DNA of 64,000 nt from an uncultured Chloroflexia bacterium (GTDB taxonomy: Bacteria; Chloroflexota; Limnocylindria; Limnocylindrales; CSP1-4), in the NCBI GenBank assembly GCA_963728635.1, contig CAVSKR010000002.1, positions 136,140 to 200,139 on the forward strand, read 5' to 3'. The notes below the pieces were generated by a model. The model was not told where the DNA came from. It saw only the letters and a program-made list of their open reading frames with translations, and ran no database searches. Positions 1,892 through 52,748 of this stretch are shown here, piece by piece. Positions within the stretch are counted from its first letter, which is position 1, and the number at the start of each line of letters is the position of its first letter. Made by a program: the position numbers and the translations under genes.

Positions 1892-2772
1892 TGACCCTCG
1901 CCGCATACGGGACGCCTGAGCCCCAGCCGCCCCAGCCTGCGGTCACGGATCCAGCCACCGATCCGGTCGTGGCCCCACCGGCGGCCACCTCCGCCGGGAC
2001 GGCGCCGCTCGTCGAGATGCGGGACATCCGCGTCTCGTTCGGCGGCGTCCACGCCGTTGACGGCGTGAGCGTGGATCTCCAGGCCGGCGAGGTCGTCGGC
2101 CTGGTCGGCGGTAATGGCGCCGGCAAGTCGACCCTCATGCGGGTCCTGTCCGGTGCCCACCTCGCCAATTCCGGACAGATCCTGGTCGACGGCGAGGAGG
2201 TCACGATCAACAACCCTCGCGACGCGAAGGCCCTGGGGATCGAGACGATCTACCAGACCCTCGCGCTGGCGGACAACGTGGACGCTGCGGCCAACCTGTT
2301 CCTTGGCCGCGAGCTGACCACGCGCTTCGGGTCACTCGACGACTCCGCCATGGAGTCCGCGACCCGCAAGGTCATGGGCCGTCTCAATCCCCGGTTCAGG
2401 AACTTCAAGGCCCCCGTCAAGTCACTGTCGGGCGGCCAGCGCCAGTCGGTGGCCATCGCCCGGGCGATCCACTTCAACGCCCGGATCCTGATCATGGACG
2501 AGCCCACCGCGGCGCTCGGTCCAGCCGAGACCAACCAGGTCCGCGAGCTCGTGGCCCAGCTCAAGGACGAGGGCATCGGTATCTTCCTGATCAGCCACGA
2601 CATCCATGACGTGTTCGACCTCGCCGATCGGATCAGCGTCATGCTCCAGGGCAAGCTCGTGGGCACGGTCAACAAGGACCACGTGACCAAGGACGAGGTC
2701 CTGGCGATGATCATCATGGGCCGAAAGCCCGGCGAGGTCACCGAGCGCGACCTTGCCGAGCTGCACGGCTAG
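1891..2772 (+). CDS. xylG: Sugar ABC transporter ATP-binding protein (single NBD)
   Basis: Walker [10 protein letters not shown], signature LSGGQRQ, Walker [12 protein letters not shown]. Translationally coupled to the permease. The long 892..2772 ORF is an in-frame 5' extension running through the permease gene. Confidence 0.8.
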
Positions 2773-4253
2773 AGCCGTCTGAACGAGGGCGCCAGCGCCG
2801 GGTAGAGTTCGCGGTACGTCTCATGCGCATCGGCGTAGAGCCTGCCGTCAGGTCCGGGTGACGCCGCCGGTCTGACCCTGACCAGCTGGCCGGCCGCGTC
2901 CTCGACCGACGCGAACCAGCCACCCCCGACGGCGGCGAGCAGGGCCGCGCCGTAGGCCGCACCCTCGGTCGTGCTGACCGTCGCCAGCTCGGCGCCCAGC
3001 ACATCGGCCAGGATCTGGCGCCACAGCGCGCTTGCCGTGCCGCCGCCCGATGACCGGATCTGGGTCGGGGCGGGCATGCCGGCTGCGATCATCTGGTCCA
3101 GCCCGTCCCGCAGCCCGAACGCGACGCCCTCGAGGACGGCGCGGGTCATGTGCCGTCGATCGTGACCGACGGCCAGTCCGACAAAGGCGCCACGCGCCAG
3201 CGGATCCGGATGCGGGCTCCGTTCGCCGGTGAGGTAGGGCAGGAACAACAGGCCGTCGCTGCCGGCGGCGACCTCGGCTGCGCCCGCCACGAGTGTCCCG
3301 TAGTCCTCGCCGGGCGCGAGCGCGTCGCGAAACCAGCGCAGGCTGCCTGCCGCGGACAGCATCACCGTCATCATGTGCCAGCGGCCCGGGACGGCGTGGC
3401 AGAACGCGTGGACCTGACCGTCCGGGTCCCGGAGCGGTTCGTCGGTTGTTGCGAAGACGACCCCCGACGTCCCAAGCGACAGGGCCACGATCCCCGGGCT
3501 GACCGCGCCGACCCCGACCGCATTGGCCGCCTGGTCGCCGCCACCCGCGACCACGGGTGTCCCTGCCCGCAGCCCGGTCGCTGCGGCCGCCTCGCTGGTC
3601 ACGGCGCCGGTGACCACGGGTCCTTCGAACGTCGGCGGCAGCCAGGCCGGATCGATCCGAAGCGCGGCAAGCACCTCTGGCGACCAGTCCCGGCGCGCCA
3701 GGTCGAACAGCAGCGTGCCCGCGCCATCCGCTTTGTCCAGCGCGTGCTCGCCGGTCAGCTGCAGCCGGACGTAGTCCTTGGGGAGAAGCACGTGCGCGAT
3801 CCGCGTCCAGACGTCCGGTTCGTGGTCGCGCACCCAGACGAGCTTCGGGGCGGTGAACCCGGTGAGGGCGTCGTTCCCGGTGATCGCGATCAACCGCTCC
3901 CGCCCGATGGCGGCCCGGATCTCGTCGCACGCCTCGGCCGTGCGCTGGTCGTTCCACAGGATCGCCGGGCGCAGGACCTCGTCGGCGGCGTCGAGGAGGA
4001 CCGCCCCGTGCATCTGGCCGGTCAATCCGATCGCGGTCACGTCGTCGGCCGCGACGCCTGTGCTCGCCAGCACCGAACGGATCGAGGCGGTCGTGGCATC
4101 CCACCACAGGCCGGGGTGCTGCTCCGTCCAGCCCGGTCGGGGCACGTCGAAGTCGTACGTGGACGCGCCCGTGCCGACGACGGCGCCGGACCCGTCGACC
4201 AGGACGGCCTTGGTCGCTGTCGTGGAAACGTCGATGCCGATGACGTGCGCCAT
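2769..4253 (-). CDS. xylB: Xylulokinase (FGGY carbohydrate kinase)
   Basis: 494 aa. Begins [20 protein letters not shown] and carries FGGY motifs. It lies downstream of xylA on the same strand. Confidence 0.85.
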
Positions 4254-4288: not shown

Positions 4289-5626
4289 CTAGCGGTCCGC
4301 TGCCCAGATTCGCTGGTTGACCAGGTTCTCGAGCGCCTCCTGGTGCCCCGACGTCGGCTTGGGATCGATCTCGCCCGCGGCCACCCGTGCCTCGAGCGCT
4401 TCGAGAGATGCGTCGCCCTCGAGGATCTCCGCCCCGAGGCCCTCATTCCAGCCCGCGTAGCGGGCATCCAGGCGTCGCTCGAGATCGCCTGCCTGGATCA
4501 TGTCGCCCGCCACGAGCAGCGCTCGTGCGAGCGTGTCGATCCCGCCGATGTGGCCGTAAAACAGGTCGGTTCGGTCCATGCTCTGACGCCGGAGCTTGGC
4601 ATCGAAGTTGAAGCCACCGGTCGTGAAACCGCCCGAACGGACGATCTCGTAGAGCGCCAGCGAGAGCTCGTCGACCGAGTTCGGAAACTGGTCGGTGTCC
4701 CAGCCGTTCTGGTAGTCGCCGCGGTTCGCGTCGATGCTGCCGAAAATCCCGTTCGCGCTCGCGTAGGCGACCTCGTGGTGGAAGCTGTGGCCGGCAAGCG
4801 TTGCGTGGTTCGCCTCGATGTTGACGCGGTATTCGCCCTCGAGCCCGTGCCGGAGGAGGAAGCCGTGGACGGTCGCGGAGTCGTAGTCGTACTGGTGCTT
4901 GGTCGGCTCCTGCGGCTTGGGCTCGAGCAGCAACGTGCCCTCGAAGCCGATCTTCGCCTTGTGCTCGGCGACCAGGGTGAGGAACCGCGCGAGCTGGCGT
5001 TCCTCGCGCGCCAGGTCGGTGTTCAGCAGCGTCTCGTAGCCTTCGCGGCCACCCCACAGGACGTAGTTCGAGCCGCCCAGCCGATGCGTCGCCTCGAGCA
5101 TGGCCTTGACCTGGGCGGCGGCGTAGGCGAACACCTCGGGGTCGGGGTTGGTCGCGGCTCCCGCGGCATAGCGCGGGTGGCTGAACAGGTTGGCCGTGCC
5201 CCATAGCAGCCGCAGGCCGCTGCGCCGCATGTGGTCCTCGATCAGGTCCACGACACGGCCCAGCAGCGCGACATTCTCCGTGAACGTGCCGACCTCCGGA
5301 GCGACGTCGCGGTCGTGGAACGTGAAGTACGGGACACCGAGCTTGGTGAGGAGTTCGAAGGCGGCGTCGAGCTTCTCGGTCGCGGCCTCGAGAGGGTCAC
5401 GGCCAGCGGCGTTCCACGGCCGGTCGAACGTGCCGGTCCCGAAGACGTCGGAGCCGGGCCAGGCGAACGAGTGCCACAGGCAGACGGCGATCCGGAGGTG
5501 GTCCTCCATGCGCTTGCCGAGGACCGTCCGATCGGGGTCGTACACCTTGAACGACAGCGGGTTCGTGGAGTCCAGGCCCTCGTACGCGATCGGCCCTGGC
5601 ACGTCGGTGAAGAACGCCTCTGTCAC
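4289..5626 (-). CDS. xylA: Xylose isomerase
   Basis: Motifs [16 protein letters not shown] and FHD are present. GTG start at 5626 preceded by GGAGGAGGG. The ORF-track start at 5749 adds a non-conserved 41-aa extension. Confidence 0.9.
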
Positions 5627-5728
5627 GATCCCTCCTCCCGAAACATCCGCCCCGACTCGCAGCCTAGCACTCGGATTCGTCGAAGAGAGCCACAAGCGCG
5701 ACGGGCCAGGCAACGGCACATCCCTGCC

Positions 5729-5966
5729 TGGAACATCCCCATGTTCCAATCGGCGAAGGAGGGCACACTCAGCGCCGGGTTGCGGCGTCCTCCGCCCGGG
5801 TCAGCCGTCATTTGGAACGCACTGGATGCTCCAAACGGCGAAGGAGTCGCCCAATCCGGCCATGGCTCCTTCGCTCAGCCGCTGATTGGAACCTCGTGAT
5901 GTTCCAGACGCGAGCGGGCGGCGGCGATGAGGGCCGATCCCTAATTCGGAACACCACCATGTTCCG
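5729..5966. promoter_or_regulatory. Array of four 20-bp palindromic operator-like sites (consensus YGGAAC-N8-GTTCCR) upstream of xylA
   Basis: TGGAACATCCCCATGTTCCA 5729-5748. TGGAAC-N9-GCTCCA 5813-5833. TGGAACCTCGTGATGTTCCA 5887-5906. CGGAACACCACCATGTTCCG 5947-5966. Confidence 0.4.
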
Positions 5967-6034
5967 TCGCGAACCTGAGCGCGCGAAGAGAGCCGCATCC
6001 GATGCGGATCGGAACCTCTCGCCGCTCTCGTCGC

Positions 6035-6331
6035 CTAGAGCCGCCCGAACCAGCTCCGCTCTCGTCGAGAGTCATCGTTCACGTCGGCGAGGTCTACGAT
6101 CTCCGGTCCCGCGTCGACGCGACCGATGCCGGGAGCGTCCGGGCCGCTCGGCGCCGAGATCGCGAAATGGACCGGCTCCTCCTCCTGGACGCCGTGCGGC
6201 CAGCCCGCGCTGCGGTAGCCGATGAAGCCGGACGCCCACGCATCCAGCGCCTGCCCCGTGCGCGGGTTGGTCATCCACGCCACGAGGGCGGCACCGACGA
6301 TGATCATCACCAGCGTGGCCGGGATATCCAT
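6035..6331 (-). CDS. Small hypothetical membrane protein (one TM helix)
   Basis: ATG at 6331 with GAGG 7 nt upstream. TM segment IPATLVMIIVGAALVAWM. The upstream part of the 6035..6430 ORF looks non-coding. Confidence 0.35.
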   Translation of the reverse strand: MDIPATLVMIIVGAALVAWMTNPRTGQALDAWASGFIGYRSAGWPHGVQEEEPVHFAISAPSGPDAPGIGRVDAGPEIVDLADVNDDSRRERSWFGRL

Positions 6332-6419
6332 GGCGTCGCCTCTGTTCACGTCGACTGTGCGCCGGGTGCCACGCGACGTCAATCGGGGGCCCGGCCCGCG
6401 CGCGGTGTAGCATCGCGGC

Positions 6420-7649
6420 GTGTCGGACACCTCCGAGAAGGGCTTCTCGACCCGCGCGATCCGAGCCGCCTCGCGCGTGCCTCGCGTCGCCCAGCGACCG
6501 TCGAGCGTGCCGATCTACCAGACCGCGACGTTCACCTCGGGCGACGCCGAGGAGCTCGGTGACGTCGTCGCCGACGCGCGCGCCGGTTACTCCTATTCCC
6601 GCCTCGCGAACCCGACCGGCCGTGCCCTCGGCGATGCGTATGCCGAGCTGGCCGGGGGCGAAGCCGGGACGGCGCTCGCATCCGGCATGGGCGCGATCCA
6701 CGCGACGCTCGCCTCGCAGCTCCAGGCGGGCGACCGGATCGTCGCGCCGCTGGCGGCCTATGGCTCGACACGGACCTTGCTGGCCGGCACGTTCGCGCGT
6801 TTCGGCGTGCGCGTCGACTTCGCGGACCTGACCGACAACGCCTCTGCCGCTGCCGCGATCGCCGAGGCACCGACGAAGGTGGTCTACGCGGAGACGATCG
6901 CCAATCCCACGACCGTCGTGACCGACCACGGAACGGTCGCCCGCCTCGCCCACGAGCACGGCGCCACGTACATCGCCGACAACACGTTCGCCTCGCCGTA
7001 CGTGTGCCGGCCGCTCGAGCTGGGCGCCGACCTCGTCGTGGAGTCGGGCACGAAGTTCCTCGGCGGCCACAGCGACGTCATCGCCGGCGTCGTCGCCGGT
7101 CCGACTGACCTGATCCGCCGCGTCGAGGCCGTCCAGAACGACACGGGCGCGACGATCGGGCCGTTCGATGCGTTCCTCGTCCTGCGCGGCATCCTGACCC
7201 TTGCCGTCCGCGTCGAGCGCCACGCCAGGACCGCGGCGGCACTGGCGGCCTGGCTCGAGCGTCAGGACAGCGTGCGCCGCGTCACCTACCCGGGTCTTCC
7301 CAGCCATCCCCAGCACGATGTCGTCCTGCGCCAGTTCCGCCCGGGCGTGGGCGGCGGGATGCTCTCGTTCGAGGTTGAGGGTGGCCGGGAGGCAGGCCGG
7401 GCGATCATCGACGCGATGGCACTCCCCGAATTGACCGCCTCGCTCGGCAGCGTCCACACGATGGTCGTTCACCCACCGTCGACCTCGCAGCGTCAGCTCT
7501 CCGAGGCGGAGCTTCTCGAGGCCGGCATCACGCCCGGCCTGTTGCGCGTCTCGGTCGGACTCGAGGACGTCGAGGACCTGCAGGCAGACTTCGCAGCCGC
7601 GCTCGAGGTCGCACGCGGCGCGGCCCGCCGCGCCACGGTCGGCGTCTAG
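6420..7649 (+). CDS. PLP-dependent Cys/Met metabolism enzyme (cystathionine gamma-synthase / methionine gamma-lyase / O-acylhomoserine sulfhydrylase family)
   Basis: 409 aa. Family motifs ESGTKFLGGHSDV, PFDAFLVLRG and HPPSTS. Confidence 0.8.
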   Translation: MSDTSEKGFSTRAIRAASRVPRVAQRPSSVPIYQTATFTSGDAEELGDVVADARAGYSYSRLANPTGRALGDAYAELAGGEAGTALASGMGAIHATLASQLQAGDRIVAPLAAYGSTRTLLAGTFARFGVRVDFADLTDNASAAAAIAEAPTKVVYAETIANPTTVVTDHGTVARLAHEHGATYIADNTFASPYVCRPLELGADLVVESGTKFLGGHSDVIAGVVAGPTDLIRRVEAVQNDTGATIGPFDAFLVLRGILTLAVRVERHARTAAALAAWLERQDSVRRVTYPGLPSHPQHDVVLRQFRPGVGGGMLSFEVEGGREAGRAIIDAMALPELTASLGSVHTMVVHPPSTSQRQLSEAELLEAGITPGLLRVSVGLEDVEDLQADFAAALEVARGAARRATVGV

Positions 7650-9118: not shown

Positions 9119-10651
9119 ATGACGACGCTCCACGACCTGCATCGTGCGCTGTTCCCGACGGCTCGAGCGGTCGATGGCGGCGACCTCTCGCCCGAGCGTG
9201 CCGAGCGCGAGGTGAGCTGGGTCCGCGTCCTCAAGCCGCGCGTGCCGGCCTTCGAAGCCCTGGAGACCGGGGATCTGGCGATCATCCCGGGTCCGGCGCT
9301 GGCCGTCGTCGCCTCTGGTCCTGCCCAGATCCACGACCTGACCGTCGCCCTCGCTCGAGCGCGCGCGCCGGCCGTGCTCCTGGTCGGCGGGGACGCCGGG
9401 GACGACCCGCTCACGGCCCTCGGCGAGGCCGCGGTGACCGCCGGACTGACCGTCCTCGACCTCGGTCGTGTCGATCCGATCGCACTCGAGCGCAGCGTCA
9501 TCGGCTTCCTGGTGAACCGCCGAGCGGAGCTCGACCGGCGCGCCGCCGAGCTGGAGGCGCAGCTGGCGAGGTTCGCCCTGCTGGGTCGCGGACTGGACGT
9601 CCAGGTCGCCACGATCGGTTCGTTCCTCGGGCGCGCAGTGGTGATCGAGGGCCGACGCGGCGATCCCATCGCAGTCCATGCGCCGGCCGACCTGCCGGCC
9701 GCGGCGGCAGCCGTCGCGCGCTACCTCGCCCGGCCCAGCGGCGCGGGTGCTCTCCGAATCGACATCCCGGCCGCGGCCGGTGAGCCCGGTCCGACGGGCC
9801 GCTTGATCCTCCTCGGCGACGAGCCGCCGAACGAGCTCGAGCGGATCGCGGCGGAACGCGTGGCGGCACTGCTCGCGCTCGAGCTGGCTCGGGACGAGGC
9901 CGTTCGGCAGGCTCGCGAGGAGACCCGCCGCGGTGACCCGCTCCCGGCGGACGGCCCGCCGTGGGTCGTGATGCTCGCTTCCCAGGGCGCCTCGATCGGC
10001 CCGGACGACATCGCCGCGCGGGAGGAGACCCGGTCGGAGCTGCGTCTTCTCATGTCACCGCGCCGGCTTCTCCTGCGGGGCAGCTCCGAAAGTCTCGAGC
10101 TGCGCCTGGTCGCCGCCGCGCCGGGCGACGATCCGGACGGTCTGGCCACCGCCGAGCGACTGGCCACGTTCCTCGGGCGAACCGTTGCCGTGAGTCGCTC
10201 CTTCAGCGAGCCCGGCGCCCGGCCCGCGGGGGAGGCCGCGGCCCGCGCGACGCTCGAGGCAGCCGATCTCCTGCCCGACCCGCCGCGCGTCGTCCGCGCA
10301 TCGCGCCTCCCCGCGTACCTGCTGCTTGGCAACGTCCGCAACCTGCCCGACGGCGTGCGTCAGGCACGCGAGCTGCTCGCGCCGATCCTGGTCGGGCGGG
10401 CTGATGCCCAGCGGGAACGGATCGACACGCTCGCCGCGGTCCTGTCGTCACCCAGCCTCGCCGAGGCGGCCGTCAGGCTCGGGGTGCACCGCAACACGAT
10501 CGCCTACCGGGTGCAGCGGCTCGAGGAGCGGGGCGACTGGGACCTGGGGGACGCACACTTGCGCATCGCGCTGCTGCTGGCGGTGAGAGTCATGCAAAAT
10601 GCACAAGAACAGGCACCGACGCCGGTACTGAACCGCAACCCGTCCTCCTGA
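9119..10651 (+). CDS. PucR-family transcriptional regulator (C-terminal HTH)
   Basis: ATG at 9119, in frame with the longer 8828 ORF. The C-terminus AAVRLGVHRNTIAYRVQRLEE matches a PucR HTH. It lies upstream of glnA. Confidence 0.7.
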   Translation: MTTLHDLHRALFPTARAVDGGDLSPERAEREVSWVRVLKPRVPAFEALETGDLAIIPGPALAVVASGPAQIHDLTVALARARAPAVLLVGGDAGDDPLTALGEAAVTAGLTVLDLGRVDPIALERSVIGFLVNRRAELDRRAAELEAQLARFALLGRGLDVQVATIGSFLGRAVVIEGRRGDPIAVHAPADLPAAAAAVARYLARPSGAGALRIDIPAAAGEPGPTGRLILLGDEPPNELERIAAERVAALLALELARDEAVRQAREETRRGDPLPADGPPWVVMLASQGASIGPDDIAAREETRSELRLLMSPRRLLLRGSSESLELRLVAAAPGDDPDGLATAERLATFLGRTVAVSRSFSEPGARPAGEAAARATLEAADLLPDPPRVVRASRLPAYLLLGNVRNLPDGVRQARELLAPILVGRADAQRERIDTLAAVLSSPSLAEAAVRLGVHRNTIAYRVQRLEERGDWDLGDAHLRIALLLAVRVMQNAQEQAPTPVLNRNPSS

Positions 10652-10727
10652 TACCGTTGCTTCCCGAGGTGCATGACCACCAGTTTGGTGCGGGGTGCAC
10701 AAGCCGGACGGGAGGAACAGCATCGCG

Positions 10728-12185
10728 ATGACCACCCTCGAACGGATCCCAAGCGGCGTCGCCGCGCCCACGTCGACCGTCGCCGACGTGATGTCCCTGG
10801 CCCGCGAGGCGGGTGTCCTGATCGTCGACCTGCGTTTCGTCGACCTGCCGGGCCAGTCGCAGCACTTCAGCATCCCCGTGAAGGACCTCGGTGAGGACCT
10901 GTTCATCGACGGGATCGGCTTCGACGGCTCGAGCATCCGCGGTTTCCAGCACATCCACGAGTCGGACATGCTGCTCATGCCCGACCCGACGACCGCCTAT
11001 GTCGACCCGACGCTCGACGTCACGACGCTTATCCTGTCGTGCGACGTCGTGGAGCCCGGCAGCCGCGAGCCGTACAGCCGCGACCCGCGCTACGTCGCCC
11101 GCAAGGCCGAGCGCTACCTGACCGAGAGCGGGATCGCGACGACCTCGTTCTGGGGACCCGAGGTCGAGTTCTACATCTTCGATTCGCTCCGGTTCGAGAC
11201 CGCCGGCCACAAGTCGATGTACGAGATCGACTCGGACGAGGGCATCTGGAATTCATCCCGCAACGGAACGTCGAACCTCGCCCATCGGCCCCGGCCGAAG
11301 GAGGGCTACTTCCCGGTCCCGCCGATGGATACGCAGCAGGACCTGCGCAGCAAGATGGTCCTCGCGCTGCAGGCGTCGGGCATCGACGTCGAGGTGCAGC
11401 ACCACGAGGTCGGCGGCCCGGGCCAGGCCGAGATCGACATCCACTACGGAACGCTCGTCGAGACCGCCGACAAGGTCCTCCGCTACAAGTACCTGATCAA
11501 GCAGGTCGCCCACGCCGCCGGCAAGGTCGTGACATTCATGCCGAAGCCGCTGTTCGGCGACAACGGATCGGGCATGCACACCCACCAGAGCCTGTGGAAG
11601 GACGGCACGAACCTCTTCTACGACGAGAAGGGCTACGCGCTGCTCTCGGACACGGCCCGCTGGTACATCGGCGGTCTGCTGAAGCACGCCAAGGCGGTCC
11701 TGGCGTTCGCCGCCCCGACCACCAACTCGTACCGCCGGCTGGTGCCCGGCTACGAGGCCCCGATCAACCTCGTGTACTCGCAGCGCAACCGCTCCGCGTG
11801 CATCCGCATCCCGACGTACTTCACGACGCCGGGTGCCCGCCGCCTCGAGTTCCGCTCGCCGGACCCGACGTGCAATCCATACCTGTCGTTCAGCGCTCAG
11901 CTGCTCGCAGGGCTCGACGGCGTCATCAACAAGATCGAGCCACCCGCGCCGGTCGATCGCGATATCTACGAGATGAGCGCCGAGGAGAAGGCCGGCATCG
12001 ACGGCACCCCGGGCTCGCTCGAGGAGGCGCTCGACGCCCTCGAGGCCGACCAGGAGTTCCTGTATCGCGGCGATGTGTTCACCAAGGACGTCGTCGACGC
12101 GTGGCTCGACTTCAAGCGCGCCGGCGCGAAGGAGGTCGCACTGCGACCGCACCCCTACGAGTTCTATCTCTACAGCGAGATGTAG
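10728..12185 (+). CDS. glnA: Glutamine synthetase type I (GSI-beta, adenylylation Tyr present)
   Basis: ATG at 10728 with GGGAGGAA upstream. GS signatures GSGMHTHQS, KPLFGDNGSGMH and NLVYSQRNRSACIRIP. Adenylylation-loop Tyr in DIYEMS. Confidence 0.85.
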   Translation: MTTLERIPSGVAAPTSTVADVMSLAREAGVLIVDLRFVDLPGQSQHFSIPVKDLGEDLFIDGIGFDGSSIRGFQHIHESDMLLMPDPTTAYVDPTLDVTTLILSCDVVEPGSREPYSRDPRYVARKAERYLTESGIATTSFWGPEVEFYIFDSLRFETAGHKSMYEIDSDEGIWNSSRNGTSNLAHRPRPKEGYFPVPPMDTQQDLRSKMVLALQASGIDVEVQHHEVGGPGQAEIDIHYGTLVETADKVLRYKYLIKQVAHAAGKVVTFMPKPLFGDNGSGMHTHQSLWKDGTNLFYDEKGYALLSDTARWYIGGLLKHAKAVLAFAAPTTNSYRRLVPGYEAPINLVYSQRNRSACIRIPTYFTTPGARRLEFRSPDPTCNPYLSFSAQLLAGLDGVINKIEPPAPVDRDIYEMSAEEKAGIDGTPGSLEEALDALEADQEFLYRGDVFTKDVVDAWLDFKRAGAKEVALRPHPYEFYLYSEM

Positions 12186-12207
12186 CGCTCGATCAGCCGA
12201 TCGACGA

Positions 12208-12245
12208 CGCCCGGTCGCAGCGGCGGCCGGGCGTATCCTTTCGTC
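12208..12245 (+). terminator. Hairpin plus T-rich tail after glnA
   Basis: CGCCCGG-N12-CCGGGCG followed by TATCCTTTCGT. Confidence 0.35.
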
Positions 12246-12267
12246 CATCCCACAGGAGGAGGTTCCG

Positions 12268-13638
12268 TTGACCGTCGCCACCCGACCCGAGTCCGCCGAC
12301 GCGACAGCGAAGATCGAAGCCGCCAAGTCGAGCGGCATCCGCTTCATCCAGCTCCAGTTCACCGACATCATCGGCCACGTCAAGGCCGTCACGATCCCGA
12401 TCCACCAGCTCGAGGGTTCCGTCAAGCACGGGACGTGGTTCGACGGGTCGTCGATCGAGGGGTTCACCCGGATCGCCGAGTCGGACCAGTACCTGATGCC
12501 GGACATGGACACCTTCGCCGAGATTCCGTGGCAGCCCGGATCGGGACCGCGCGGGACGGCGCGGGTGATCTGCGACGTGTTCACCCCGAACGGCGAACCG
12601 TTCGTCGGCGACCCGCGGGGGGTCCTGCGCCGCCAGGTCGAGCGTGCCAAGAAGCTCGGCTATGTCGTCAACACCGGCCCGGAGCTCGAGTTCTTCCTGT
12701 TCCGCCGGGGCGACGACGGCGGGATCGAGCCGCTGCCGCACGATCAAGCCGGCTACTTCGACTTCTCGACCGACCTCGCGCAGGAGATCCGCCAGGACAT
12801 GGTCGATGCATTGGAGGCGTTCGGCATCCGGGTCGAGGCCGCGCACCATGAAGTCGCGGTCGGCCAGCACGAGATCGACTTCGAGTATTCGGATGCGCTG
12901 CGGACCGCCGACAACGCGATCACGTTCAAGTTCGCCCTCAAGGCCATCGCTCAGCAGCACGGCCTGTATGCCACGTTCATGCCCAAGCCCATCCACGGGA
13001 TCAACGGCTCGGGCATGCATACGCACCAGTCGCTCTTCTCGATCGCCGACAACCGGAACGCGTTCGCCGACGCTGCGAACCCGTACGGACTGTCGGACGT
13101 GGCGCGCTCGTACATGGCCGGGATCCTCGCCCACGCCCGCGGCATGATCGCGGTGCTGGCGCCGCTGGTGAACTCGTACAAGCGGCTCGTCCCCGGCTAC
13201 GAGGCCCCGACCTACCTGACCTGGGGCCGCACCAACCGGTCGGCGTTGATCCGCGTCCCGATGGTGTCGCCCGGCAAGTCGATCGAGGGGACGCGGGCCG
13301 AGGTGCGCTGCCCCGATCCGTCGTCGAATACCTACCTGGCGTTCGCGGCGATGATCGCGGCCGGCCTCGACGGTGTCGAGCAAGGCCTGTCATTGGCCGA
13401 GCCGGTCGAGGAGTCGCTGTTCGAGATGGATGCGACCCGGATCGCCGAGAAGGGCATCCGCGAGCTGCCCGGCACGCTGGGCGAGGCCCTCGACGAGCTC
13501 GAGCGAGACGACGTCATCCGCGAGGCCCTCGGCGACCACATCTTCAACCACTACCTCGACGCGAAGCGCGCCGAGTGGGACGAGTACCGGACCCAGGTGT
13601 CCGACTGGGAGGTCGAGCGCTACCTCGACGAGTTCTAG
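12268..13638 (+). CDS. Glutamine synthetase paralogue (GSI-alpha-like, no adenylylation Tyr)
   Basis: TTG start at 12268 preceded by AGGAGGAGG. Motifs INGSGMHTHQS and NSYKRLVPGYEAP. The loop reads SLFEMD, with Phe in place of Tyr. Confidence 0.8.
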   Translation: MTVATRPESADATAKIEAAKSSGIRFIQLQFTDIIGHVKAVTIPIHQLEGSVKHGTWFDGSSIEGFTRIAESDQYLMPDMDTFAEIPWQPGSGPRGTARVICDVFTPNGEPFVGDPRGVLRRQVERAKKLGYVVNTGPELEFFLFRRGDDGGIEPLPHDQAGYFDFSTDLAQEIRQDMVDALEAFGIRVEAAHHEVAVGQHEIDFEYSDALRTADNAITFKFALKAIAQQHGLYATFMPKPIHGINGSGMHTHQSLFSIADNRNAFADAANPYGLSDVARSYMAGILAHARGMIAVLAPLVNSYKRLVPGYEAPTYLTWGRTNRSALIRVPMVSPGKSIEGTRAEVRCPDPSSNTYLAFAAMIAAGLDGVEQGLSLAEPVEESLFEMDATRIAEKGIRELPGTLGEALDELERDDVIREALGDHIFNHYLDAKRAEWDEYRTQVSDWEVERYLDEF

Positions 13639-19147: not shown

Positions 19148-19237
19148 TCTCGAACACTGGCCCGGCGGAGCGGCGACATCCGCCTCGCCGGGCTCCCTGC
19201 TATCATCCGCAGGCTCTGTCAAACGAGCACTTTCGGT

Positions 19238-20011: not shown

Positions 20012-20198
20012 CATCTTTCACGGAAACCTCTGAGTTCAAAGCGAGATCCTCAATCGGCGAGGGTTGCTTCAGCTTGGGCGAGCGCGGCGGTGGAATAGAC
20101 GAGCCAACGAATACGTCGGGTGGCCCTGTTCGACCACGGCACGCCCCGCGGGGTCGTACGCGAATGCCTCCCCGCTGCGGCACGGTGGCGTGGCGAGG

Positions 20199-21107
20199 CT
20201 AGCCAGGCGGCGGCTCGGGCGTCGGATCCGGCGTGGGATCCGGTGTCGGCTCGGGCGTGGGATCCGGTGTCGGCTCGGGCGTGGGCGCTGGCGTGGGATC
20301 CGGTGTCGGCTCGGGCGTGGGCGCTGGCGTGGGATCCGGTGTCGGCTCGGGCGTGGGATCCGGCGTGGGCGGTGGCGTCGGATCCGGCGTGGGCGGTGGC
20401 GTCGGATCGGGCGTGGGTGGCGGCGTCGGATCGGGCGTGGGTGGCGGGGTCGGGTCGGGCGTGGGTGGCGGGGTCGGGTCGGGCGTGGGCGTCGGAGTGG
20501 ACGTCGGCGTGGGCTGGGGGGTCGGTGCTTGCGTCGGTGGGGGCGGTGGGGTCGGCGTTGGGACGATCGTGGGCGTCGCGACCGGTGGGGTCGCCGTTGG
20601 TGTCGGCGTCGGAGTTGGGATCGGGGTAGCCGTCGGCGTCGGCGTTGGGATCGGGGTAGCTGGCGGCGTGAAACCCGGCGCTGGCGGTGGTGTCGCCATG
20701 CCGCTCGGGGTCGGCGCTGGCGGTGAGGACAAGGGCGCAGGTAGCGGACCAGTCGGTTCCGTGGCCGCTGTCGACCGTATCAATTCAACTGCGGTCACAC
20801 CGGGAGCTGGAGGTGCCAGCGTTGGAGTTGCCGGCGCGGGAGTTGCCGGCGGGAGAGTCGAAGGAGCACGCCCAGGTGTGGGTGTTTCGGGCGTGACGCC
20901 AGCGACCGGCGGGACCAAAAGCTCCGGTCCACGTCCCTCGCCGGACCATGTCGGAGCGGCGAAAACGAATGGAGCAAGGGCGATGACGACGATCAAGCCG
21001 ATGACCGTCCCGACGCCCGTCTGCGTTTCCTTCGACGGCACCGCGACGTCCCCCTTGACGTGCGACCAGTCTAAACCCGCCGGTCTTTTCTCGCGAATCG
21101 CCCCCAT
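20199..21107 (-). CDS. Membrane-anchored Pro/Thr-rich repeat protein
   Basis: ATG at 21107. One [23 protein letters not shown], then a long [10 protein letters not shown] tandem repeat. The start is uncertain, and the ORF extends to 21293. Confidence 0.45.
20213..20500. repeat. Tandem 12/24-nt repeats (GGATCCGGYGTSGGCTCGGGCGTG units) that encode the PT repeats
   Basis: Directly visible. The repeat produces long ORFs on both strands. Confidence 0.8.
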
Positions 21108-21156
21108 CGGGCCCGTTGATGCAACGGCGCCCGAAAGGTCTGCCAGGGTTGGCTGA

Positions 21157-21663
21157 CTAGGTGTTGGGTTCCAGCCCGAGACCGTCTCGCAGGATCCCTG
21201 CCTTATCTGCCACGACGTCTGCGGCGTCGTTGGCGGCTGCCGACAGCGAGATGACCTCTGCAAGGCTCCGGGCACGTGACGCCGCAAGCGCACGTTGCTG
21301 GAACGATTCGTCTGCCTTGATGAGCGTCGCGGCGTCGGCCTGGACTTCAGGCGGGAACGCGATCTTCTTGAGCCCCTCGATGAACTGGCCGTCGGCCCGG
21401 GCGATCAGAGCCCAGTAGCGCTGATGGTCCTCGAGTGACGTCCGACGGCCGTACTGCTCCTCCGCGTGGTCGATGGCGATGTTGTACGGGTCGGCGACAG
21501 CGGAATAGGCGGCGCGAGCCTCTTCGATCGTCAGGAACGAGCCGGAGGGCTTCGGCGTCAGGTCGGCGTGGGACGGTGACGGCCCCACGCTGGCTGGGCC
21601 GGGTAACCCGCCGCACGCGACGACTGGTATCGCGAGGAGGAGCAGCGCCAGCACTCGGCCCAT
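21157..21663 (-). CDS. Lipoprotein, hypothetical
   Basis: ATG at 21663 with AAGAGGA upstream. Signal peptide and lipobox VVAC. The upstream part of the 375-aa ORF is non-coding. Confidence 0.5.
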
Positions 21664-25666: not shown

Positions 25667-26716
25667 CTACGTCTCGCGGGGGATGGCCGAGCGCCGCACC
25701 ACGAGCCGCGGCGTCAGCACGACGTCTGCCACCTCGGATCGATGGCGCCCGTTGTCGATCATGTCGAACAGCAGCTCGGCCGCGACCCGACCCATCTCGA
25801 GGCCGCCCTGGCTGATCGTCGTCAGCGGCGGGATGGTGAAGGCGGCCACGTCGATGTCGTCGAAACCGATGATCGACAGGTCCTCCGGGATCCGGATCCC
25901 GACCTCGTACGCGGCCTGCATCAGGCCGATCGCGGACGTGTCCGACGTCGCGTAGATCGCCGTCGGATGGCCGTCCGTCCAGTCCGCGAACATCCGACGC
26001 CCGAGCTCGAGCGCCGGCCCGGGATCCTGGTCGGTGATGAACACGCCGATCCGGTCGGCCAGACCGCGCTCTTTCATGAATCGCTCATAGAGGTCGATCC
26101 GCTGGCGGCCGTCGTAGGTCCGGTTGTCGGACACGCAATGGATCCAGCGGTGGCCAAGCTCCCACAGATGGTCCATGGCGAGCTGTGTCCCCCGGATGCC
26201 ATCGGAGTAGACACCCGGGATCTGGCGACGGGTCGTCCGGTCCGTGACGCCGATCACATAACGGTGCTGCTGCGCCAGCTGGTCGAGCGTGTCGTCGCCA
26301 CCGTCGATGTCGCCGATGACGATGATCCCGTCAGCGTGCGAGCTCTCGAACATCGAGCTGTATGAGAGCGCGACGTCCGGCCGGTAGTCGACGTGCCCGA
26401 GGAAGAGGCGATAGTCGCGCATCCGGGAGGCATCGTTGATGCCGCGCAGGATCTGGATGTGGAACGGGTCGGAGATGTCGCGGGCGATCACGCCCAGCAG
26501 TGAGCTGCGGCTGCCGCGCAGGCCCCGTGCGAGCAGGTTGGGCTTGTAGCCAAGCTCGGCGGCGACAGCGAGCACCCGCTGGCGCGTCTCCTCGCGGATG
26601 GGAACGCCCGATTCCCGCCCGTTCAGGATGCGCGACACGGTCGTGATGGAGACCCCGGAGCCGTGCGCGACGTCGCGCAGCGTCACCGTCGCTGGGCCGG
26701 ATCTGGGTGTCTCCAC
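25667..26716 (-). CDS. LacI-family transcriptional regulator
   Basis: GTG at 26716 after GGGAGG. HTH VTLRDVAHGSGVSITTVSRILNG followed by a periplasmic-binding-like effector domain. Confidence 0.8.
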   Translation of the reverse strand: METPRSGPATVTLRDVAHGSGVSITTVSRILNGRESGVPIREETRQRVLAVAAELGYKPNLLARGLRGSRSSLLGVIARDISDPFHIQILRGINDASRMRDYRLFLGHVDYRPDVALSYSSMFESSHADGIIVIGDIDGGDDTLDQLAQQHRYVIGVTDRTTRRQIPGVYSDGIRGTQLAMDHLWELGHRWIHCVSDNRTYDGRQRIDLYERFMKERGLADRIGVFITDQDPGPALELGRRMFADWTDGHPTAIYATSDTSAIGLMQAAYEVGIRIPEDLSIIGFDDIDVAAFTIPPLTTISQGGLEMGRVAAELLFDMIDNGRHRSEVADVVLTPRLVVRRSAIPRET

Positions 26717-26775
26717 CTGGGCTGCTGCCTCCCGGGAACCCTCTTGACTCGCCGTTCGGCCGGAGTATATCCTCC

Positions 26776-26835
26776 GCACGCTTAGCGTCAAGCGCAAACG
26801 TTAAGCGCAATCGATGAGCCTAAGCGTTAAGCCAG
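26776..26835. promoter_or_regulatory. Operator-like TTAAGCG/TAAGCG repeats with an AACGTT core in the LacI/SDR divergent region
   Basis: TTAGCG, TCAAGCG, AAACGTTAAGCG, CTAAGCG and TTAAGCC occur within 60 bp. Confidence 0.25.
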
Positions 26836-26870
26836 CGCCAGACGACGAAAAAGGTCCGAGAGGTGCAACG

Positions 26871-27641
26871 GTGCCGAACTACCCCAGCTTCGCGCTCACC
26901 GGGCAGGTCGCCCTCGTCACCGGCGCCGCCCGTGGACTGGGCCGCGCGATCGCCCTGGCGCTCGCCGATGCCGGGGCCGATGTCGCGCTCGGCCTGCGTC
27001 AAGCGGGCACGGCCGACGACCTCGTCCGCCAGATCGAGTCGATGGGTCGGCAGGCACTCACCGTCGAGCTGGACGTGACCAACCTGTCCCAGATCGGGCC
27101 CGCCGTCGACGCCGTCGTCGAGCGCTTCGGCCGACTGGACATCCTCGTGAACAACGCGGGCCTCGGACCGAGCAACCTCGCCGAGGACGTCACCGAAGCC
27201 GATTTCGACCTCACGATGGACGTCAACGTCAAGGGCCTGTTCTTCACGAGCCAGGCAGCGGGGCGGGTGATGATCCGCCAGGGCTCCGGACGGATCGTCA
27301 ACCTCAGCTCGCAGGCGGGCTTCATCGCCCTGCCGACCGAAGCCATCTACTGCGCCTCGAAGGCGGCCGTCGCGCACCTCACGAAGTGCCTGGCCGTGGA
27401 GTGGGGCATCCACGGCATCACGGTCAACGCCGTTGCGCCGACCTTCATCCGCACCGACGGCACCGCCGAGGCGCTGGCCGATCCGGACTTCGAGGCCGAC
27501 GTCCGCGAGCGGATCGCCGCCCTCCATCGCATCGGTGAGCCCATGGACGTCGCCGGCGGCGTGGTCTTCCTGGCGTCGCCGGCAGCCAGCCTGATCACGG
27601 GCGCGACGCTCCTCATCGACGGCGGATGGACGGCCCGTTGA
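26871..27641 (+). CDS. SDR-family oxidoreductase
   Basis: TGAARGLG, NNAG and YCASKAA motifs. GTG at 26871 after AGAGG. Confidence 0.8.
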   Translation: MPNYPSFALTGQVALVTGAARGLGRAIALALADAGADVALGLRQAGTADDLVRQIESMGRQALTVELDVTNLSQIGPAVDAVVERFGRLDILVNNAGLGPSNLAEDVTEADFDLTMDVNVKGLFFTSQAAGRVMIRQGSGRIVNLSSQAGFIALPTEAIYCASKAAVAHLTKCLAVEWGIHGITVNAVAPTFIRTDGTAEALADPDFEADVRERIAALHRIGEPMDVAGGVVFLASPAASLITGATLLIDGGWTAR

Positions 27642-28678
27642 GCGATGGGCCGGACATGACCGACGCCCGACCGGCGACGTCCGATGCGGTCGAGCCGGGT
27701 ACACGGCTCGACCGGTCGCGCCGGGCCCGCGAGCGTGCGGCCCGTCTGCTGCGCGGCAGCGGGATCCTGCTCGCGTTCGTCGTGTTGATCGTCCTGGGCG
27801 CGCTCCAGTCCGAGCATTTCCTCACCTTCGAGAACTTCTCGAACGTCGCACGCCAGGCGTCGATCGCTGGGATCCTCGGGATCGGGATGACGTTCGTGAT
27901 CCTGACTGCCGGCATCGATCTGTCTGTCGGCTCGATCCTCGGGATCGTTGCGATCGGCTATGCCTCGATGCTCGCCGGCGGCGTCCCGTGGCCGCTGGCC
28001 GTCGCCCTCGCGCTCGTCTTCGGCGCGCTGGTCGGAGCGCTCAACGGATTGGGCATCACGCGGGGCGGCATCCAGCCTTTCATCATGACCCTGGGGATGC
28101 TCGTCATCGCCCGGGGCGTGACGCTCACGTACTCGGATGCCAAGCCCATCAGGGCCGGCGCCGCGGCGGCGGACATCTCGTGGATCGGGACCGGTTCGTT
28201 CCTCGGGCTGCCGGTCGCGTTCCTGCTGTTCATGGGCATCGCCGCGCTAGCCTGGTTCACGCTCAAGTACACGACATTCGGCCGGCAGATCTACGCGGTC
28301 GGCGACAACCTCGAGGCGGCGCGCCTGTCCGGGATCCCGACGCGGCGCGTGATCTTCAGCGTGTATGTGATCAGCGGCCTGTGCGCCGCGGTGTCGGCAC
28401 TGATCGTCGTCGCTCGCCTGGGCGCCGCGGAGGCGACGCAGGGCGAGGGCTTCGAGCTCGATGCGATCGCCATCGTGGTCATCGGCGGGACCAGCCTGTT
28501 CGGCGGCTCCGGCGGGATCGGCGGGACGCTGGTCGGGGCCGGGATCGTCGCCGCGGTCAACAACCTGCTCAACCTGCTTGGCGTGCCGCCGTTCTCGCAG
28601 CGCATCGCCAAGGGCCTGATCATCCTCGGCGCCGTCCTCCTGGAGCGGCGGACGAGAGGCCAGGAGGAAGGCAGGTGA
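27626..28678 (+). CDS. Sugar ABC transporter permease (RbsC-like)
   Basis: 350 aa, about 10 TM helices, ribose/xylose permease family. Confidence 0.8.
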   Translation: MDGPLSDGPDMTDARPATSDAVEPGTRLDRSRRARERAARLLRGSGILLAFVVLIVLGALQSEHFLTFENFSNVARQASIAGILGIGMTFVILTAGIDLSVGSILGIVAIGYASMLAGGVPWPLAVALALVFGALVGALNGLGITRGGIQPFIMTLGMLVIARGVTLTYSDAKPIRAGAAAADISWIGTGSFLGLPVAFLLFMGIAALAWFTLKYTTFGRQIYAVGDNLEAARLSGIPTRRVIFSVYVISGLCAAVSALIVVARLGAAEATQGEGFELDAIAIVVIGGTSLFGGSGGIGGTLVGAGIVAAVNNLLNLLGVPPFSQRIAKGLIILGAVLLERRTRGQEEGR

Positions 28679-28800
28679 GCCCTTGATCGAGGGAGGTCGA
28701 TCTGGGGTCGGCGCTCGCCGTCAGAGCGGCCGGACCCGGCGACGGGATCCAGGCAGGGAGAGAAAAGTCCGGAATGGAACGAGGTTGGAGGACCCAACGG

Positions 28801-29751
28801 ATGGCATGGAAGCGATTTCTCGGGACAGCCGCCGTCATCGCGATCGTCGCGGTGCTCGGCGCTTGCTCGGCGGCAACGCCGGGTGGCGGATCACAGAAGC
28901 AGGTGATCGGCTTCTCCCAGGCGAACGGCGGCGACGAATGGCGCACCAACCAGAACAAGAAGGTCGCCGAGAACTGCAACCCGGTCGCGCAGACGCTCGT
29001 GTCGGACGCGCTCGGTGACGACGCGGTGCAGTCGAGCCACGTCGACGAATTCGTGAGCCGGCCGGTCAGCGTGCTGCTCCTCACGCCGAACACGGCGGCC
29101 GGTCTGACCGAGGCCGCCAAGCGGGCCCTCGACAAGAAGGTCCCGGTCATCACGCTCGACCGCAGCGTCGACGTCGAAGTCACCCAGCACATCGGCGCCG
29201 ACAACAAGCTCATCGGCAAGACCGCGGCGGAGTATGTCAGCAAGACGATCCTCGGCGGCAACGGCGGCAAGGTCATCGAGATCCAGGGCACCGCCGGTGC
29301 ATCGGCCACGACCGACCGCCACGACGAGTTCGTGAACTGGCTGTCGGCCAACGACCCGAAGGTCGAGATCGTCGACAGCGTCGTCGCCGACTACAAGCGC
29401 GAGAACGCGCTGACCGCGATGAACGACCTGCTCCAGAAGTACGGACCCAACGAGGTCCAGGTGATCTACACCCACAACGACGCGATGGCGCTCGGCGTCG
29501 TCGCGGCCCTGAAGACCGCCAACCGACTCGACGAGTTCAAGGTCGTCGGCATCGACGGCCAGAACGAGGCGATCCAGGCGATCAAGGATGGCGAGATCGT
29601 CGTGACCTTCACGTACGACAACGCCGGCATCGAAGCCTGCCAGACGGCCGCCAAGCTCCTCAAGGGCGAGACGGTCGAGAAGACATGGGTCCTGCCGACC
29701 AATACGATCGACGCCGCGAACGTCGACGAGTGGCTCGGCAAGGGCTTCTAG
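28801..29751 (+). CDS. Sugar ABC transporter substrate-binding lipoprotein
   Basis: ATG at 28801 after GGAGG. Signal and lipobox LGAC, with a periplasmic binding fold. Confidence 0.8.
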   Translation: MAWKRFLGTAAVIAIVAVLGACSAATPGGGSQKQVIGFSQANGGDEWRTNQNKKVAENCNPVAQTLVSDALGDDAVQSSHVDEFVSRPVSVLLLTPNTAAGLTEAAKRALDKKVPVITLDRSVDVEVTQHIGADNKLIGKTAAEYVSKTILGGNGGKVIEIQGTAGASATTDRHDEFVNWLSANDPKVEIVDSVVADYKRENALTAMNDLLQKYGPNEVQVIYTHNDAMALGVVAALKTANRLDEFKVVGIDGQNEAIQAIKDGEIVVTFTYDNAGIEACQTAAKLLKGETVEKTWVLPTNTIDAANVDEWLGKGF

Positions 29752-29831
29752 CTCAACCCGGTCCCCGGACCGGTTAAGCCGGGGACGCGGCCAGTCTCCT
29801 CCGCCGCGTCCCCGACACAGCTGCGAGACCG

Positions 29832-31334
29832 ATGACCGAACCCGAGCGCATCCTCGAGATGCGCGGCATCGACAAGACCTTCCCCGGCGTCCACGCGCTC
29901 CGGGCCGTCGACCTCGACGTCCGGGTCGGCGAGATCCTGGGCCTTGTCGGCGAGAATGGCGCCGGCAAGTCGACGCTCGTCAAGATCCTGTCAGGCGCCT
30001 ACGGGCGCGACGCGGGCGAGATCCTCATCGCCGACGAGGCCGTCGAGGCGTCGAGCCCGAACGAGATGATCGGCCGCGGGATCGCGGTCATCTACCAGGA
30101 ACCATCGCTGGCGCCACACCTGTCGGTCGCGGAGAACATCTTCATGGGCCGCCTGCCGACGAGTCGGTTCGGCATCGTCGATCGGCGCAAGCTGACGGAG
30201 GACACCGCGGTGGTCGCCGAGCGGCTCGGCCTCGACATCGACCCTGGCGCGCGGGTGGGAACGCTGAGCGTCGCCCGACGCCAGATGGTCGAGATCGCCA
30301 AGGCCCTGTCGCGCGACGCGCGTCTCATCGTGCTCGACGAGCCATCCGCCGTGCTGGCCGATGCCGAGCTCGACGGGCTGGTGCGGGTCATGCACCGCCT
30401 CGCGGAGAAGGGCGTGGCGTTCATCTACATCTCGCACCGGCTCAACGAGGTTTTCCGCATCACCGACCGCGTGACGGTGATGAAGGACGGCCGGGTCGTC
30501 GCGACGGAACGCACGGCCGACATGACCCCCGACCGGCTGGTACGCATGATGGTCGGGCGCGACCTGGGGCAGGTCTACGGGGAGCGTCACGGGCTGGCGC
30601 CTGGCGAGGTCGCGCTCGAAGTCCGCGGCCTGACACGCGCCGGCGTCTTCGACGACGTGTCCTTCAGGGCGCGAGCCGGCGAGATCGTCGGGATCGCCGG
30701 GCTGGCCGGCTCCGGCCGGACCGAGGTGCTGCGCGCGATCCATGGCGCGGACGCGGTCGACGCGGGCACGATCGAGATCTTCGGGCGGCCGGCTACGATC
30801 CGTACGCCGCGCGACTCGATCGCGCTGGGAATCGGCCTGCTAACCGAGGATCGCAAGACCGATGGCCTGCTGCTCCAGCAGGCTGTCGCGACGAACGTGA
30901 CGATCTCGCGCATGGACGAGGTGGCGCCGACCGGCGTCATCCGGATGCCACGCGAGCGCGACCTGGTCCGCGGCTACATCGACCGCCTCTCGATCCGGAC
31001 TCCCGGTGGTCGGACGCCGGTGCGTAACCTGTCCGGCGGGAACCAGCAGAAGGTCATCTTCGCGAAATGGCTCAACGCCCGGTGCCGGATCCTGCTGATC
31101 GATGAGCCGACCCGCGGCGTGGACGTCGGGGCGAAGCGCGAGATCTACGCGCTGCTGCGTGACCTGGCGGCTCGCGGGACGGCGATCGTCATCGTCTCGT
31201 CGGAGCTGCCCGAGGTGATCGGGATCAGCGACCGGATCGTGGTGATGCGCGAGGGCCGCATCGCGGTGACGCTCGACGCGGCCGAGGCGACCGAGGAGCG
31301 GATCATGGCGCACGCGACCCGGGTCGCGGCATGA
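29832..31334 (+). CDS. Sugar ABC transporter ATP-binding protein (duplicated NBD)
   Basis: 500 aa with two Walker A, signature and Walker B sets. Confidence 0.85.
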   Translation: MTEPERILEMRGIDKTFPGVHALRAVDLDVRVGEILGLVGENGAGKSTLVKILSGAYGRDAGEILIADEAVEASSPNEMIGRGIAVIYQEPSLAPHLSVAENIFMGRLPTSRFGIVDRRKLTEDTAVVAERLGLDIDPGARVGTLSVARRQMVEIAKALSRDARLIVLDEPSAVLADAELDGLVRVMHRLAEKGVAFIYISHRLNEVFRITDRVTVMKDGRVVATERTADMTPDRLVRMMVGRDLGQVYGERHGLAPGEVALEVRGLTRAGVFDDVSFRARAGEIVGIAGLAGSGRTEVLRAIHGADAVDAGTIEIFGRPATIRTPRDSIALGIGLLTEDRKTDGLLLQQAVATNVTISRMDEVAPTGVIRMPRERDLVRGYIDRLSIRTPGGRTPVRNLSGGNQQKVIFAKWLNARCRILLIDEPTRGVDVGAKREIYALLRDLAARGTAIVIVSSELPEVIGISDRIVVMREGRIAVTLDAAEATEERIMAHATRVAA

Positions 31335-47233: not shown

Positions 47234-47262
47234 CGATTCGAGTGTAGCGGTCCGATCTTCCG

Positions 47263-48953: not shown

Positions 48954-48958
48954 TGACG

Positions 48959-50872: not shown

Positions 50873-50967
50873 GCGGGGCCCTCCTGCGGAAGACGACCGT
50901 CCGAGTGTACCCCTTGACGACCGGCCCTTCGGACGCCACCCTCCGCATCGTTCATGCGAGGGGACAC

Positions 50968-52604: not shown

Positions 52605-52640
52605 GGGCCGATGATAGGCCGCTTCCCAGTACCATCGTGT

Positions 52641-52738
52641 CGGGAGCGGTCGGGCCCCGGTGGGTCCCCCGGTCTTCAAAACCGGTGACGCCGCGCTCGG
52701 CGTGGCGTGGTGGGTTCGACTCCCACGCGTTCCCGCCA
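52641..52738 (+). tRNA. selC: tRNA-Sec (anticodon TCA)
   Basis: Anticodon stem CCGGT/ACCGG with loop CTTCAAA. Long variable arm. T-arm GTGGG-TTCGACT-CCCAC. Extended acceptor stem and encoded CCA. Confidence 0.75.
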
Positions 52739-52748
52739 CGGAGGATCG

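Follow-up and report, generated by a model that had tools for sequence, protein, structure and literature searches.

Four related palindromes (dyads U1 to U4) are located upstream of the xylose isomerase gene xylA of an uncultured Chloroflexota bacterium. They are non-random, non-coding and unique to this genome, and their half-sites have been selectively kept. The promoter of xylA and its proximal operator are conserved across relatives, and the dyads lie farther upstream in a short insert. We tentatively favour the view that they represent four lineage-specific sites for one dimeric DNA-binding protein. From the sequence we infer the binding of a protein, the type of this protein and any effect on the expression of xylAB, and binding at the dyads is somewhat more likely than a control of xylAB. 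The functional reading draws on a single genome.

Genomic context

The window, i.e., the whole stretch of 64 kb that was analysed, has a GC content of about 70 % and belongs to a high-GC Chloroflexota genome (Limnocylindria-like). The nearest public xylA loci are from MAGs of Limnocylindria-type Chloroflexota, with a protein identity of 93 % for the best one. The gene xylA (4289-5626, minus strand) encodes a class II xylose isomerase of 445 amino acids, with a GTG start codon at 5626-5624 and the ribosome-binding site GGAGGAGGG at 5631-5639. The xylulokinase gene xylB (2769-4253) is located downstream, and the genes of the xylFGH transporter converge on xylAB from the left, the start of the window falling inside xylF. 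Upstream of the array and on the same minus strand as xylA, a gene for a small membrane protein of 98 amino acids (6035-6331) has a strong codon GC periodicity and is kept in relatives; a search in Pfam gave no match for the protein. To the right of this gene follow a PLP enzyme of Cys/Met metabolism and ResB. The array is flanked by xylA and the small membrane protein gene, and no regulator gene adjoins it, as an earlier, sequence-only reading of this DNA had already remarked. The nearest regulators in the window are a PucR-like gene (9.1-10.6 kb), an OmpR-type response regulator (16 kb) and a LacI-family regulator (26 kb). The PucR-like gene is the sole one of the three that was seen in the fetched loci, and relatives that have no array possess it as well.

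Other features of the window were recorded in passing. A second sugar ABC transporter cluster (25670-31331) includes the LacI-family regulator (25670-26800, minus strand) and a short-chain dehydrogenase; in its xylF-like binding protein, a stretch of 67 nt is 70 % identical to the xylF fragment at the window start. Two tandem glutamine synthetase genes (10695-13638), with full Gln-synt_N and Gln-synt_C domains, share a 47-nt stretch of 85 % identity. A long tandem repeat with a 12-bp period (20158-20650) lies in a minus-strand ORF (20199-21293) for a Pro/Thr-rich repeat protein of the TPDPTPPP type. The region 44262-54116 is a selenocysteine-linked cluster with tRNA-Sec (52642-52738), SelA, an AIR-synthase-type SelD-like gene and FdhD; the molybdopterin/NuoF-like oxidoreductase subunits encoded in the same cluster suggest a selenocysteine formate dehydrogenase.

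Sequence, position and conservation of the dyads

Dyad U1 (5729-5748) has the sequence TGGAACATCCCCATGTTCCA, composed of TGGAACAT-CCCC-ATGTTCCA, and is a perfect palindrome of 8+8 positions. U2 (5813-5833) is degenerate, TGGAAC-GCACTGGAT-GCTCCA; its spacer is N9, one half-site has a mismatch, and the outer arms TTTGGA/TCCAAA extend the span to 5811-5835. U3 (5887-5906) reads TGGAACCTCGTGATGTTCCA, composed of TGGAACCT-CGTG-ATGTTCCA, and U4 (5947-5966) reads CGGAACACCACCATGTTCCG, composed of CGGAACAC-CACC-ATGTTCCG, with the outermost pair altered from T-A to C-G.

The exact pattern GGAAC-N8-GTTCC is present three times in the window (5730-5747, 5888-5905, 5948-5965), where dinucleotide shuffles of the window predict 0.03 matches; none of 100 shuffles reached a count of three. 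A scan tolerating mismatches to the 16-position consensus TGGAACAT-N3..6-ATGTTCCA returned U1 to U4 as the four best-scoring sites in the window (0, 1, 3 and 3 mismatches, all others four or more), and the xylA loci of other genomes, about 1.03 Mb in total, contained not a single site with two or fewer mismatches. The shuffles, the window scan and the loci of the relatives rule out a chance origin, thus the four-palindrome array described in the sequence-only reading is real. Coding sequence was ruled out by the lack of codon GC periodicity in the array, while the flanking genes have this periodicity; the dyads are non-coding and upstream of the xylA promoter.

As xylA is a minus-strand gene that starts with the GTG at 5626, the dyads are situated 103-340 bp upstream of the gene, in line with the distance given earlier, and U1 is the closest at 103 bp. 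Measured from the inferred transcription start, the dyad centres are approximately 85, 169, 243 and 303 bp upstream. The centre-to-centre spacings of 84.5, 73.5 and 60 bp correspond to 8.05, 7.0 and 5.7 helical turns, hence three of the four dyads, the first three, are in helical phase. All dyads are upstream of the promoter (about -85 to -303), which excludes a simple promoter occlusion.

Between the copies, the pairwise identity is 95 % at the ten half-site positions, but only 46-50 % in the 8-nt centre and 36-41 % in the 20-nt flanks, at a random baseline of 27 %. This is the pattern of a dimer contacting the outer half-sites. Neutral decay would not spare two blocks of 5 nt separated by 8 nt, which argues against the relic of a duplication. 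The DNA hairpins that the dyads can form are weak, -4 to -6.5 kcal/mol with U1 at -6.5 kcal/mol, and the dyad arms have a GC content of 37 % compared to 70 % in the genome, resembling the other operator of the clade and unlike structural hairpins. Arms of low GC content and weak hairpins speak for a symmetric dimer that recognises the dyads in double-stranded DNA, and against a structural hairpin.

The insert and its repeats

The array resides in a non-coding insert of about 320 bp (5700-6018), and on both sides of it the sequence aligns with relatives. The insert sits between the probable terminator hairpin of the small gene and the conserved xylA promoter. This GC-rich hairpin, CCGCATCGGATGCGG on the minus strand (CCGCATCCGATGCGG), is part of a longer stem (about 5970-6034) just past the stop codon of the small gene; it is without U-tract and probably the terminator of the gene for the 98-amino-acid protein. 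The element had been noticed before and exists, its position being 5993-6007 instead of 5987-6001.

Thirteen syntenic relatives with XylA proteins of 86-94 % identity have the gene order ResB, PLP enzyme, usually the small gene, xylA, xylB and transporter. The array and the pattern GGAAC-N8-GTTCC are absent in these 13 loci and in about 70 more distant xylA loci; among the loci compared, the insert with the array is specific to this genome. The stretch between the small gene and xylA varies by lineage. Nothing extra is present in L083 (intergenic region of 122 bp) and L245 (105 bp), and in L244 (75 bp) the small gene is also absent. L081, L082, L120, L121 and L243 (about 242 bp) possess an unrelated insert with three 16-18-nt repeats at a spacing of exactly 61 bp. 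In L001, a PIN toxin and a MazE-type antitoxin (5164-5872), divergent from xylA, are placed between the small gene and xylA. A homology of the array with the L081-type insert did not exceed shuffles, and a remnant of the toxin-antitoxin cassette was dismissed as neither DNA nor translated similarity was found. The repeats of L081 (3763-3900) read CGCGACTSYCRRACRC and are accompanied by a 21-nt inverted repeat around CGCGTTTTCG. In L001, a 24-bp palindrome, CTTAGCAT-N8-ATGCTAAG, is located just upstream of the antitoxin start and is likely an autoregulatory operator.

The sequences next to the dyads are repetitive as well. The tail box CGGCGAAGGAG directly follows U1 (5751-5761, plus strand) and has a second copy after U2 (5836-5846), confirming the double occurrence reported earlier. 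U1 and U2 are both trailed on the plus strand by AWCGGCGAAGGAG, with a 21-nt stretch that is 90 % identical between the two units. U1 and U3 together with flanking sequence constitute a 28-nt inverted repeat of 86 % complementarity, the tail of U3 being on the other side, and U4 has a related tail, CTGAGCG...CGAAGAGAGCC. The inverted pair GCGAAGGAG/CTCCTTCGC of the sequence-only reading is present, at 5838-5846 and 5866-5874 and not at 5843-5880; CTCCTTCGC at 5866-5874 is the inverted tail copy beside U3. Tails recur beside U1, U2 and U3, so that the repeated unit is the dyad with its tail and not the dyad alone. That the units have tails in common, in direct and inverted orientation, points to a copy-and-paste origin and not to a de novo evolution of sites. 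Tandem Repeats Finder made no call at the array.

A 14-nt direct repeat, CGAAGAGAGCCRCA, brackets the array with one copy at 5681-5694, inside the old operator, and one at 5984-5997 (plus strand), 303 bp apart. Its support is marginal (7 of 300 shuffles), and it possibly reflects a duplicated target or the junction of a duplication. The distal unit and the promoter-leader segment are weakly similar in an end-to-end alignment; its score was attained in 8 of 500 shuffles, and the pair had been picked post hoc. A duplication of the promoter-leader segment was not accepted on the basis of these two marginal shuffle results.

Repetitive DNA without a role in xylose control, either a palindromic repeat cluster (REP/BIME- or MITE-like) or local duplications near a terminator, which by chance ended up in a hypervariable intergenic spot, is the main, somewhat less likely rival explanation of the array. 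REP, BIME and REPIN elements are short, imperfect extragenic palindromes that occur in clusters, with copies carrying asymmetric tails in direct and inverted orientation, and they vary between strains. The array shares with them the units of dyad and tail in both orientations, which are similar to REP doublets, and the lineage-specific insertion at a spot that is occupied in relatives by nothing, by 61-bp repeats or by PIN/MazE genes; the flanking 14-nt repeat and the weak similarity between distal unit and promoter-leader segment are further points in favour. REPs, however, have copy numbers from the tens into the hundreds, their GC-rich hairpins are stable, and a RAYT gene accompanies them. 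The cluster described here is the only one in the window, with no copy in about 1 Mb of related loci and no other palindrome family in the window. In contrast to REP stems, the hairpins of the cluster have little stability (-4 to -6.5 kcal/mol) and a higher AT content than the genome, and among the approximately 45 ORFs of the window that were scanned, none encodes a transposase, RAYT, Y1 transposase or integrase. The retention of half-sites far above that of centres and flanks also speaks against a repeat cluster. Searches for mobile relatives of the array revealed nothing similar: BLAST against plasmids and phages yielded chance matches of 26-32 nt or none, paired dyads in IMG/VR retrieved coding tandem repeats and one unrelated CRISPR-like array, single dyads in IMG/VR gave scattered single matches, and the pattern of dyad and 21-nt tail had five chance matches in low-GC coding DNA of JGI metagenomes. 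A search with several spellings of the motif found no paper containing it in the library covered.

An action of the palindromes as RNA hairpins, in a read-through 3' UTR, a long xylA leader or an antisense small RNA, with consequences for stability, termination or the attachment of an RNA-binding protein, is improbable. The 408-nt intergenic region folds better than shuffled sequences (z = -2.6 sense, -3.7 antisense), the altered outer pair of U4 is compensatory, and the region immediately follows a gene of the same orientation. But the good folding is a direct consequence of the palindromes themselves, the copies conserve the stem sequence and not merely the pairing, U2 and U3 contain uncompensated mismatches, and the region is conserved in no relative. 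A search with Rfam 15 over 5300-6700 gave only sub-threshold chance matches, and over the whole window only tRNA-Pro and tRNA-Sec. Within the array, neither sigma-70-like promoters nor intrinsic terminators with a U-tract were detected. ECF-type promoters (GGAAC-N16/17-CGT) and a sigma-54 spacing did not fit on either strand, as judged by eye.

The conserved xylA promoter and its operator

The block common to the relatives is the proximal 75-95 bp with the ribosome-binding site and, where the sequence reaches it, an extended -10 element. In the window this element is TGCTAGGCT (5661-5669, minus strand), identical in the relatives reaching it with the exception of L119, a contig-end copy without TG, and three more distant loci. 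From its position, the transcription start of xylA is placed near 5654. The pattern TGNTANNNT has six copies in the 64 kb, compared to 8.25 expected from shuffles, and is no commoner than chance. Three of the six copies, at 10649-10657, 19198-19206 and 5661-5669, are directly upstream of glnA, tRNA-Pro and xylA, respectively, which makes it a credible promoter element here, and the pattern may be a useful promoter predictor for the lineage. The array itself contains no extended -10 motif. In L001, xylF is preceded by TGGTAGCCT. The motif GRMACATCC, which reads GGATGT on the xylA sense strand, is present three times within 100 nt: in the xylA leader (5641-5652), just upstream of U1 (5715-5724) and in U1 (5730-5739); the leader copy is not kept in L001.

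Over the -35 region, the clade has TTTGTG-N9-CACAAA, a palindrome of 21 bp with its end 8 nt upstream of the TG. It was found in 11 of the 13 syntenic relatives, L244 being without it and the contig of L119 being cut within the palindrome. The palindrome is intact in at least 15 relatives, for example in L001 (5920-5940), L081 (3926-3946) and L006 (5905-5925; perfect, 7+7), and recurs in distant loci down to a XylA identity of 71 %. In the window a degenerate version, CTTGTGGCTCTCTTCGACGAA (5676-5696, minus strand), overlaps the -35 region. The first T and the middle A of ACAAA have changed, two positions that are (nearly) invariant elsewhere, and a mutation of both arms was seen in this window only. 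The adjacent 21 nt, including the promoter element, are unchanged. Counting the flanking A/T, the clade palindrome has a length of 23 bp, and operators of the ROK family are palindromes of roughly 23 bp (PMC3553997). A ROK protein is encoded just upstream of xylF in the closest relative, L001, where the sequence-only reading had expected such a regulator. The ROK-like size and this gene indicate that the proximal TTTGTG-N9-CACAAA, and not the array, is probably the operator of the clade's XylR (ROK).

The sequence-only reading had taken the dyads for operators of the xylose regulon's own ROK-type XylR, conserved in the regulon and repeated at xylF and the regulator gene. The location upstream of xylAB, the ROK-family gene upstream of xylF in the closest relative and the multiple sites, three of them in helical phase, agree with this model, but it is very improbable, as the dyad is absent from the 13 syntenic relatives, the approximately 70 further loci and the whole 13-kb locus of L001 including the xylF-ROK region, the clade keeps TTTGTG-N9-CACAAA instead, and no site of the array overlaps the promoter. 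An absence from orthologous xylA upstream regions, as observed, was the finding that the reading itself had named as counting against a xyl-regulon operator.

Comparison with known regulatory systems

The array would work like a multi-operator region and fits no named family. In looping systems such as lac O1-O3, gal OE/OI and deo, several dyads are distributed over hundreds of base pairs, some of them in phase, and one or more operators overlap the promoter or lie directly beside it. The four dyads of the array, by contrast, keep a distance of 85 bp or more from the inferred start, on its upstream side. NagC-type regulation involves two distant operators and looping. The operators of ROK proteins (XylR, NagC, Mlc) are, like the dyads, palindromes upstream of a sugar operon; they differ in length and half-site sequence, and the array is not conserved together with a ROK gene. 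An assignment as ROK operator was rejected for dyads of 20-21 bp situated 85-303 bp upstream of the inferred start, the palindrome TTTGTG-N9-CACAAA being the better fit. LacI operators have 14-20 bp with contiguous half-sites and a central CG; the centres of the dyads, CCCC, CGTG, CACC and ACTGG, have no conserved CG, and the conserved bases are 5-9 nt away from the dyad axis. The Cheo box of LexA (GAAC-N4-GTTC, at SOS genes) did not apply to spacers of 8-9 nt in all four dyads and to xylAB as downstream genes. Thus the geometry fits none of the three families, LacI, Cheo box or ROK, in agreement with the earlier reading. A CRISPR was excluded by 25-nt copies of only 64-76 % identity with divergent centres and by the irregular period of 83, 75 and 60 bp.

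As a precedent, the TetR-family regulator SCO7222 of Streptomyces coelicolor comes closest among the systems found; it binds three TGGAACGNCGTTCCA dyads in one intergenic region, with a dimer per dyad (PMC3511530). The half-sites TGGAAC/GTTCCA and the presence of several dyads in one intergenic region are a resemblance only. The SCO7222 dyad has 15 bp (GGAAC-N5-GTTCC) in contrast to the 20 bp (N8) of the array. In S. coelicolor the regulator gene lies next to the dyads in divergent orientation, and the array has no TetR-family neighbour; a multi-operator of this type (TGGAACG-N-CGTTCCA) was rejected on these grounds. ParB binds to parS, TGTTCCACGTGGAACA, with the half-site GTTCCAC (PMC7022226). 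The TGGAAC dyads have the heptamer core TGTTCCA in common with parS, but in everted orientation of the half-sites. No parS (TGTTNCACGTGNAACA, heptamer GTTCCAC/GTTTCAC) is present in the window within two mismatches, and the C required at position 7 is found in none of the eight half-sites of the array.

Possible function of the array

A protein occupying the four dyads would be a homodimeric, sequence-specific protein of the helix-turn-helix type, encoded away from the array. The array could serve as an upstream module acting on xylAB, by a cooperative occupancy with looping or by upstream activation; looping or cooperative repression via the array is possible. The damaged ancestral operator is consistent with a change of regulatory input, without being proof of it. 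Several observations weigh against four binding sites: a regulator gene is not adjacent, a second locus with the motif was found neither in the window nor in the 1.03 Mb of loci from relatives, the units have direct and inverted tails in common, and the spot collects unrelated inserts in relatives.

A more far-reaching reading is a rewiring in progress, with a ROK-type operator in decay and xylAB now under the control of an inserted four-site module for a different dimeric regulator. We consider it unlikely. Such an insert may have arrived by copy-and-paste, leaving the 14-nt flanking repeat. The remaining probability belongs to a functionless insert or to a reading outside those considered.

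For the annotation of these genomes, the conserved proximal block and not the array is the likely promoter and operator of xylA in the clade. As a relic of repeats, the array would mark an intergenic hotspot of high variability and have no value beyond this. Should the dyads be genuine binding sites, they present the motif recognised by an uncharacterised regulator of a Chloroflexota lineage that is uncultured and lives in soil. They would then also be a clean natural case of a sugar operon that switches its regulatory input between genomes with xylose isomerases of still 93-94 % identity. As the ancestral operator can still be seen next to the new module, the swap would be directly testable.
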